Positions 35,935-37,085 of a stretch of 56,852 nucleotides of DNA are shown piece after piece (position 1 is the stretch's first letter; every line of letters begins with the position of its first letter). The position numbers and the translations under genes are program-made. Under the pieces are notes generated by a model that saw nothing but the letters and a program-made list of their open reading frames with translations, made no database searches and was not told the origin of the DNA. The DNA comes from an uncultured Alphaproteobacteria bacterium (GTDB lineage: Bacteria; Pseudomonadota; Alphaproteobacteria; UBA7879; UBA5542). The stretch covers positions 1-56,852 of the forward strand of contig CAIWGV010000038.1 of the NCBI GenBank assembly GCA_903912365.1, given 5' to 3'.

Positions 35935-36477
35935 ATGGCTTCGCCAGGAGATATTATAGTTTTAAAGCCGGATAGCTCGACGGATCTTCAGGGAAGTGGG
36001 CAAATTAATATTCCAGGAGCGAACTTAACTCATGGAGTTCGGCTTTCGGAAATGCCCTCCTATACCATTACCACAGAGTTCGACATAACCCGTCCTGTGA
36101 CACCTGGTATTGGAAATGCTACCATTCACCCAGTAGTTTGTAAGTTGACGGTGGATCAAAGTACGGTGGATGCTTTTAAGTGCCTTGTGGCAGGGATCAA
36201 CTTGCAGAATGTTTCCATCTGGAAATTGACCACCACAGGATCCACGTTGAAAGTGTTTACGCGTGTTGTGCTTTCGAATACGTTTATTGAAGAGTGGTCC
36301 GTTTCCTTTGATACAAATCTTGACCGTATTACGGGGGAGGGGTTGCAAGCCTCCTATACATTTGTCTGTAATGCTATTACGCAAATTATCAATGCGACGG
36401 ATTCTGATGGAAACCCAACAGGATCTGATGGATCAGAGGTTCAGCCAGGAATACAAACCAGCCAACAATCTAGCTAA
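35935..36477 (+). CDS. Divergent Hcp-like tube protein 1
   Basis: Sits at the hcp position; Hcp-like pattern G.ATIHPVVCKLTVDQST...G..L..V.I...VVLSNTFI...DSDGNP.G. Confidence 0.6.
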   Translation: MASPGDIIVLKPDSSTDLQGSGQINIPGANLTHGVRLSEMPSYTITTEFDITRPVTPGIGNATIHPVVCKLTVDQSTVDAFKCLVAGINLQNVSIWKLTTTGSTLKVFTRVVLSNTFIEEWSVSFDTNLDRITGEGLQASYTFVCNAITQIINATDSDGNPTGSDGSEVQPGIQTSQQSS

Positions 36478-36488
36478 AGAGGAATATT

Positions 36489-37085
36489 ATGGGATCTCCT
36501 AAAAACAATGTAAATGCAACGTCTGGATTATGTTACTTCATGTGTGCGGAAATCCCGGGTATTGCAACAGCAGGATCCGATGTGGTGACGGGCCATCAGG
36601 TTTATCGATATAGGCTTTCTGGGTCTAAGGATATCAAGATTGGATACAATGGGAATCTGAATGCAAGTGCGCAGGTGCGTATCCAGACTTTAGATATTGT
36701 CATGGATATGAGTAAAACAGCTTTGTTTGTAAATGCCGGATTTAATGGGACAGTTTTTAAAAAAATTACCCTTCTCAATCTGAAAAATTACGGAGCCACC
36801 AATATGGCAAAACCTGGATTCAAGATCGAGTTAGTGAATGCTAAGCTTGTGGAGGTTGTATCAAGCGCGTCTTATGCCGTAGGTGTTGCGGCAGAAGCAG
36901 AAGGGCCTGACTTCTTTAAATCTAATTTTAAAAATAGTAATGATATTAAAAATATTGGGGCAGTGGGGCTCAGTTTTACGGCGCAAGAGTATAATATTTT
37001 CTACTTCCCCGTCAATGCAGCAGGGGCGCCTCAGGGGCAGGTGGCCACATCCTTTAACGTGCCCACAAATACGCTGGGCGGTTAG
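36489..37085 (+). CDS. Divergent Hcp-like tube protein 2
   Basis: YF...IPG..., KIELVNAKL..V, LSF...YNIFY...AGAPQGQVATSFNV..N. Confidence 0.68.
   Translation: MGSPKNNVNATSGLCYFMCAEIPGIATAGSDVVTGHQVYRYRLSGSKDIKIGYNGNLNASAQVRIQTLDIVMDMSKTALFVNAGFNGTVFKKITLLNLKNYGATNMAKPGFKIELVNAKLVEVVSSASYAVGVAAEAEGPDFFKSNFKNSNDIKNIGAVGLSFTAQEYNIFYFPVNAAGAPQGQVATSFNVPTNTLGG

Follow-up and report, generated by a model that had tools for sequence, protein, structure and literature searches.

Two highly divergent Hcp-fold genes in the core type VI secretion operon of an alphaproteobacterial lineage: a possible two-protein tube

In the textbook type VI secretion system (T6SS), the inner tube is a stack of Hcp homohexamers, and Hcp usually ranks among the better conserved proteins of the machine. 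Most Proteobacteria carry one hcp per T6SS locus, and adjacent hcp pairs with less than 17% identity to Hcp1 occur in Bacteroides fragilis, where an obligate Hcp2-Hcp3 heterohexamer carries an effector (PMC13035841). This pair also goes by the names Hcp1-Hcp2 (PMC13035841, PMC13213661), and a major homohexameric sHcp is described as the bulk tube, with minor heteromeric Hcps tied to effector cassettes (PMC13213661). Heteromeric Hcp rings have been reported only in 2025-2026, for Bacteroidales T6SSiii alone, and each time in a minor, cargo-carrying role next to a major Hcp. Among endosymbionts, the Paracaedibacter-like Candidatus Bodocaedibacter vickermanii is described with a [tssB-tssC-hcp] cluster containing one Hcp-like gene (PMC8163844). 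A different arrangement is found in the stretch of DNA analyzed here (the window; 56,852 nucleotides, contig CAIWGV010000038.1 of an uncultured alphaproteobacterium). Two tandem genes, hcpA (open reading frame 1, ORF1; family A) and hcpB (ORF2; family B), stand between the sheath gene tssC and the baseplate gene tssE, and their products, both predicted to have the Hcp fold, may together build the tube of one T6SS.

The modeled fold of both ORFs is that of canonical Hcp/TssD (PF05638; Hcp1 of P. aeruginosa, 1y12, and of A. baumannii, 4w64), and the canonical T6SSi shares with the window the slot between tssC and tssE, the tssBC-hcp-tssEFG-vgrG operon, and weak but real profile links. However, canonical Hcp is present as one copy of about 160 aa, whereas the window has two mutually unrecognizable paralogues of 180 and 198 aa. 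Also unlike canonical Hcp, hcpB has a variable insertion of about 20 aa, and both genes outpace the sheath in evolution. The minor Hcp pairs of Bacteroidales T6SSiii are likewise adjacent and very low in mutual identity, with mixed hexamers there and a lateral A-B contact predicted here. There, however, the tube is made by another, major Hcp, and the pairs adjoin variable effector regions and carry specific effectors, whereas here only two Hcps were found, both in the core operon of a proteobacterial-type system (TssL, TssM, TssA), and the heteromer, measured in Bacteroidales, is predicted. Paracaedibacter-like and Holosporales endosymbionts share with the window a TssC clade (97*), reduced genomes and a divergent, long B-like Hcp, but they have one hcp in the slot, compared with two in the clade of the window. 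Phages and extracellular contractile injection systems (eCIS) likewise use several tube-fold proteins in a single contractile machine, and their tube and initiator sets include T4 gp19 with gp48/gp54 and Afp1 with Afp5/Afp7. Full-text literature, supplements aside, yielded no description of a proteobacterial T6SS, alphaproteobacterial or otherwise, whose core operon holds two divergent hcp genes in tandem. Heteromeric and multiple Hcps are already known; what would be new here is a proteobacterial-type T6SS with a core-operon pair and no separate major Hcp.

The original prediction had placed two mutually dissimilar ORFs in the slot, and its lengths and coordinates proved exact (Table 1). BLASTP finds no detectable similarity between hcpA and hcpB (best 13.5 bits, E 2.4). 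The merely skeletal Hcp pattern that had been remarked on, against well conserved TssB and TssC, is reflected in profile scores: hcpA matches Pfam T6SS_HCP (PF05638) with 23.5 bits, exactly at the curated cut-off, and hcpB has no Pfam match, compared with 159.5 and 411.6 bits for the two sheath proteins; neither hcpA nor hcpB has an NCBIfam match. In a collection of 5.8 billion proteins, there is one relative of ORF1 besides itself and there are two of ORF2. When AlphaFold2 models of both ORFs, built from 8-sequence alignments, were compared with the PDB using Foldseek, the top matches of ORF1 were the Hcps 8yun and 4w64 (E 4.5e-9, template modeling score 0.62-0.79) and that of ORF2 was Hcp1 4w64 (E 4.8e-10). 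At E<=0.001, 63 structures match ORF1 and 70 match ORF2, and among the matches listed (25 for ORF1, 27 for ORF2), all are Hcp or Hcp fusion constructs. Judged from these models, each ORF has the Hcp beta-barrel fold, as had been anticipated. A split or fused single gene was considered and rejected, as ORF1 and ORF2 each model as a complete Hcp domain. The insertion foreseen in the second ORF lies at residues 130-152, coinciding with a stretch of low model confidence (residues 133-151; predicted local distance difference test, pLDDT, <50) between strands 108-131 and 154-164, and it forms a length-variable block in the B-family alignment.

No phage or eCIS tube or initiator protein stands among the matches listed for either ORF in the PDB library, the viral structure library lying outside the search. 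This bears on the idea that hcpA is a tube initiator or adaptor, forming a single ring between VgrG and an hcpB tube in the manner of phages and eCIS. Such a role would fit the analogy drawn in the original prediction with the initiator plus main tube of eCIS and Photorhabdus virulence cassettes (PVC), as well as the universal retention of A in the structural operon; contractile injection systems also generally use several tube-fold proteins. However, the analogy was not supported: the fold matches listed for A and B are all Hcp, and VgrG is present with a full gp27-like hub (Phage_GPD 255.7 bits), the element that templates Hcp in T6SS. Sister lineages, moreover, manage without A, and an initiator role for hcpA is considered unlikely.

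The two proteins are homologous, a relationship visible from profile-to-profile comparison alone. Using hhalign, the 17-member profiles of the A and B families align over 158 columns with 96% probability (E 4.3e-9), compared with 3.8% for the 8-sequence profiles, a low value because those profiles were too shallow. T6SS_HCP is matched at E<=0.01 by 15/17 members of the A family and 8/17 of the B family. Sequence-profile searches of the PDB with the 8-sequence profiles gave an Hcp as the best match of ORF1 (E 0.082), and 7fcf as that of ORF2 (E 0.068), for which Hcp1 chains also appear (E 0.27-0.99); these weak matches are consistent with Hcp, and not significant alone. When 1.84 billion representative proteins were searched exhaustively with HMMER, the 17-member A profile matched 212 of them at E<=0.001 (49 at <=1e-10, 16 at <=1e-30). 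Of the 150 matches listed from this search, 30 were scanned against Pfam, and all 18 short proteins among them (159-173 aa) are strong T6SS_HCP matches, so that canonical Hcps are reached by the A profile. The other 12 were long proteins, of which eight have six Hcp stretches, one has five, two have three and one has none. The six-Hcp proteins, which are large and come from public genomes and metagenomes (1032-2164 aa; P0035, P0037, P0045, P0055, P0063, P0068, P0071 and P0074), have their T6SS_HCP domains in tandem on a single chain, and RTX, cadherin, Ig-like or dockerin domains are added in some. Going by their domain content, such chains may be single-chain, pseudo-hexameric Hcp rings.

A third hcp was found nowhere in the assembly (1.17 Mb, 47 contigs, marker completeness 100). 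PF05638 at E<=10 over the whole assembly gives ORF1 alone, and the 8-sequence A profile and the 17-member B profile each match one place, with no further Hcp-like gene; this absence is not absolute because the assembly is fragmented and may be missing a contig. The expectation that no canonical hcp lies elsewhere was borne out within this scope. Gaps between the genes are short (tssC-hcpA 23 nt, hcpA-hcpB 11 nt, hcpB-tssE -1 nt, the GTG start of tssE being overlapped by the hcpB stop codon), strong Shine-Dalgarno sites precede hcpA (GAGGAG) and hcpB (AGAGGA), and nothing resembling a terminator turned up on the + strand from tssC to tssE in a simple scan. For these reasons tssC, hcpA, hcpB and tssE look co-transcribed. 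Genes for tssK, tssL, tssM and tssA lie on another contig of the same assembly (C45). TssM had no match in the assembly through PF06761 (IcmF-related) and was recovered with PF14331 as a 1357-aa frame on C45. By gene content, the machine is complete, of the TssL/TssM type (T6SSi), and the only T6SS of the genome.

The pair is widely kept among relatives. In the window's family, 9/9 species genomes have both genes and the arrangement is invariably tssC-A-B-tssE, which also holds for 18/18 species genomes of the window's order. Order-wide profile searches detected B in 17/18 and A in 16/18, G009 being missed by both profiles and G013 by that for A. The apparent absences are limits of sensitivity, because local inspection finds both genes: the A copy of G013 was recovered by a local hidden Markov model search (E 2.6e-9), and G009 has two ORFs (186 and 216 aa) between tssC and tssE that score 36.9 bits against the A and 65.8 bits against the B 17-member profile. 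In a class sample of 401 genomes, 27 matched the 17-member B profile at E<=0.001, and 26 loci were annotated (L121-L146). Four of these, from three other families (L121-L124), have tssC-A-B-tssE, and 11 have a single B-like ORF after tssC; the remaining loci show no tssC around their B-like genes, some of which form tandem arrays of three (L126, L128). With the pair of L121, identical to that of L038, counted once, pair-bearing genomes total 22 (18 in the order and 4 further), and the pair always lies between tssC and tssE. Loci of metagenome-assembled genomes (MAGs) named as Holosporales, Holosporaceae and Paracaedibacteraceae have one ORF of ~185-200 aa after tssC. At least five loci (L129, L131, L136, L140 and L065) are firmly single-copy because tssE directly follows the single B-like ORF and leaves no room for a second hcp.

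The single-copy Hcps of the related endosymbiont-type loci (L127-L141, L045-L065) are themselves unusual, with lengths of 174-206 aa and, in most, 30-45 additional residues ahead of the first Hcp strand. The arrays of three B-like hcp genes (~170-190 aa) come from small alphaproteobacterial genomes (L126/L144 in G208, L128/L146 in G024), with a weak fourth B-like match, a 134-aa ORF, in L146. No tssC lies inside the ~3-kb locus of either array, and they represent Hcp multiplication of another kind within this broad group. By TssC, the closest relatives with a name are Alphaproteobacteria, Holosporales-like MAGs among them. Metagenome runs containing the DNA come from lake water and freshwater. 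An intracellular lifestyle is inferred from the genome size (1.17 Mb) and the relatives.

Sequence divergence of the pair is pronounced. In comparisons with relatives, identity is 72-93% over the final 300 residues of TssC and 27-64% for TssE, whereas ORF1 and ORF2 are 24-62% identical or fall below tblastn detection; on these comparisons hcpA and hcpB evolve far faster than TssC. Within the genus, the proportion of nonsynonymous differences (pN, 0.05-0.36) is far below that of synonymous differences (pS, 0.58-0.84) in 5/5 pairs for each gene, and the corresponding rate ratio dN/dS is 0.05-0.15 in 4/10 comparisons, dS being saturated in the other six. The original prediction had offered, as one possibility, cargo-specific Hcp chaperones under host-driven divergence; the fast evolution of the pair is real, yet pN far below pS indicates selection that is overall purifying, not diversifying. 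Since their order and position are conserved in all relatives examined and pN is far below pS, both ORFs are real genes and not chance ORFs.

The same data speak to whether one of the genes could be a decaying or functionless duplicate. Fast evolution of both, and the lack of a Pfam match for the window's ORF2, are what such decay might produce. However, pN is far below pS in 10/10 comparisons, frames of both genes are intact in 17/18 genomes of the order, the pair is kept in genomes of ~0.9-1.9 Mb, where useless genes should be lost, and both models keep a full Hcp fold, so that this explanation is close to refuted. In the one genome with interrupted frames, G008 (78% complete, single contig), tssC and both hcp frames are broken, with one stop inside the A match. 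Because tssC is broken too, either this T6SS is decaying or the assembly has indel errors.

Phylogenies were built from 71 Hcp rows (a quick IQ-TREE run) and from 40 TssC rows covering 14 pair-bearing loci. All 14 of these loci group in a single clade of the TssC tree (Shimodaira-Hasegawa-like approximate likelihood ratio test, SH-aLRT, 84), making the two-Hcp state a single change, and this clade is nested in a larger one (97*) with single-Hcp endosymbiont lineages. In the Hcp tree, the A rows make up a monophyletic group (SH-aLRT 99*) whose stem is long, at 1.2 changes per column, and B rows are unresolved among single-copy, endosymbiont-type Hcps (supports 87-93, not starred). Going by these trees, hcpB is the counterpart of the lone Hcp in related T6SS loci of the endosymbiont type, and hcpA is a lineage-specific extra copy with a single origin in the clade ancestor. 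The simplest history would be a tandem duplication in that ancestor, after which A changed rapidly while B retained the ancestral character. Evidence against this history is that the Hcp tree joins A, with weak support (73), to canonical Hcps instead of B; because of this placement, acquisition of hcpA from elsewhere is a possible alternative to duplication. A and B as one clade are not rejected by the approximately unbiased (AU) test (lnL difference 0.85, p 0.466).

The main rival explanation is a division of labor, in which hcpB homohexamers would form the bulk tube and hcpA separate, minor rings, serving as effector cargo carrier or chaperone, or as a special ring at VgrG or at the distal end of the tube. 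A B-like Hcp alone suffices in related lineages (the five or more loci with no room for a second gene), B groups with single-copy Hcps, and the long stem of A fits a new role. Precedent exists in Bacteroidales, where a major Hcp tube is described with minor, effector-carrying Hcps (PMC13213661, PMC13035841). However, known cargo Hcps adjoin variable effector regions and co-vary with effectors (PMC13035841), whereas A follows tssC immediately in the core operon of 22/22 genomes. By Pfam matches, moreover, A is closer than B to canonical Hcp. Altogether, a division of labor is a possible explanation, to be held with reserve.

Evidence for a joint tube comes from prediction of the complex. A 1:1 A+B dimer was modeled from genome-ordered alignments in three runs, with three controls, and scored 0.84 compared with 0.00 for the best control; the 0.84 mark is reached by 116/157 solved complexes and by 2/215 mismatched pairs. 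Agreement among the A+B runs is no lower than 81% of contacts, with a partner pLDDT of 79 or more. In the predicted interface, ORF1 strand 117-132 lies against ORF2 strand 38-49, the lowest-error contacts running antiparallel between ORF1 residues 119-127 and ORF2 residues 38-46, and residues 129-135 of hcpB, which reach into the insertion, also fall within it. A strand-beside-strand contact of this kind is presumed, by analogy with Hcp ring structures, to be of the lateral, intra-ring type and not of the stacking type. Because the predicted contact is strand to strand, A and B could share one ring side by side. Read in this way, the contact argues against an initiator, which would call for ring stacking, and, if it is not a memory of solved rings, against separate A and B rings.

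The explanation preferred here, with a probability of roughly 45%, is that mixed A/B rings form the tube of the single T6SS. In the proposed mechanism, hcpA and hcpB would be anciently separated Hcp-fold paralogues, co-transcribed in a tssB-tssC-hcpA-hcpB-tssE core operon, hcpA having arisen once in the clade ancestor, most simply by tandem duplication, and having been kept since. Both would be structural tube subunits that pair laterally, strand on strand, into mixed rings, and the resulting heteromeric tube would be nucleated by VgrG and propelled by the TssBC sheath. Both copies would have been retained through mutual dependence after duplication, a ratchet of the kind that the strong drift in endosymbiont populations should favor. 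Of the two-component tube put forward in the original prediction, the pairing of two tube proteins thus has in its favor the Hcp folds, the lack of a third hcp, the clade-wide pair and the predicted lateral contact, whereas the likeness to eCIS and PVC initiators was not supported.

Several observations weigh against mixed rings. Confidence of the single-chain AlphaFold2 models is moderate (pLDDT 67 for ORF1 and 70 for ORF2), and the A+B score may reflect model memory of Hcp rings, because Hcp hexamers have been solved. The prediction, moreover, concerns a heterodimer only and is silent on any preference for hetero- over homo-assembly. Interface residues are not conserved above the rest of either protein (Mann-Whitney p 0.11 for ORF1 and 0.10 for ORF2), and the same holds for ORF2 when the variable loop is left out (p 0.26). 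In addition, A need not be in every ring, because B can work alone, to judge by relatives whose one Hcp is B-like. A stronger form of the proposal, that the main inner tube of this T6SSi is an obligate heteromer of mixed or alternating rings, fixed once by a duplication ratchet in a reduced-genome endosymbiont ancestor and unreversed in at least 22 species-level lineages, is offered tentatively.

The pair is surrounded by the other genes of the machine and by several further genes (Table 1). Both profile scores of tssE are below their cut-offs, and its position is conserved in relatives. Between tssE and tssF sits a vapBC-like toxin-antitoxin module, in which a 76-aa ORF overlaps a 140-aa PIN-domain gene; the small ORF is presumably AbrB/SpoVT-like. 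In related loci L121-L123, tssF abuts or overlaps tssE directly, and in L124 the tssE and tssF frames overlap. Because tssE and tssF are contiguous in these four loci, the module looks inserted into the T6SS operon here. An AbiEii toxin gene with an AbiEi-like partner lies directly downstream of vgrG, and beyond it is a 922-aa ORF that adjoins a gene for a MORN-repeat-like protein. From its position, the 922-aa ORF is a possible candidate T6SS effector, for which its neighbor may serve as immunity protein or adaptor.

Table 1. Features of the T6SS locus and its neighbors, with positions in the window.
Feature	Position	Strand	Evidence
tssB, small sheath subunit	33863..34423	+	Pfam T6SS_VipA 159.5 bits; TIGR03358 158 bits
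tssC, large sheath subunit	34445..35911	+	Pfam VipB 411.6 and VipB_2 151 bits; TIGR03355 644 bits
hcpA (ORF1, family A), 180 aa	35935..36477	+	Pfam T6SS_HCP 23.5 bits (= cut-off); Foldseek Hcp
hcpB (ORF2, family B), 198 aa	36489..37085	+	Foldseek top match Hcp1 4w64
hcpB variable insertion loop, residues 130-152	36876..36944	+	Low pLDDT; length-variable alignment block
tssE, gp25-like baseplate subunit	37085..37591	+	TIGR03357 43.5 bits (cut-off 53.2); GPW_gp25 21.7 (below cut-off)
vapBC-like toxin-antitoxin module	37779..38428		
76-aa ORF of the module	37779..38009		
PIN-domain gene of the module, 140 aa	38006..38428		Pfam PIN 35.1 bits
tssF	38500..40326	+	Pfam T6SS_TssF 571.6 bits
tssG	40290..41351	+	Pfam T6SS_TssG 264.8 bits
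vgrG, spike, gp27/gp5-like	41348..43378	+	Phage_GPD 255.7, Phage_base_V 50.2, Gp5_trimer_C 75.5 bits (Pfam)
AbiEii toxin (288 aa) and AbiEi-like antitoxin (182 aa)	43382..44783	-	AbiEii, Pfam 112.3 bits; AbiEi-like, sub-cut-off
922-aa ORF	44904..47672	-	No Pfam match
MORN-repeat-like protein	47801..48559	+	Sub-cut-off

Because hcpB has no Pfam or NCBIfam match, it will be overlooked by annotation pipelines, and T6SS loci of such endosymbionts may be scored as lacking hcp, or their hcp genes miscounted. The lineage would have either a heteromeric tube or a minimal design of a tube plus one specialized ring that is essential in the clade, and either answer bears on how subunit diversity is tolerated in tube symmetry, sheath matching and cargo loading. 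The system, a single machine with two genes, is also a clean one for studying how duplication drives obligate heteromers in small populations. If the tube is indeed built from both proteins, this would be the first T6SS with a heteromeric bulk tube, beyond a minor cargo ring, and a natural example of complexity gained under genetic drift.

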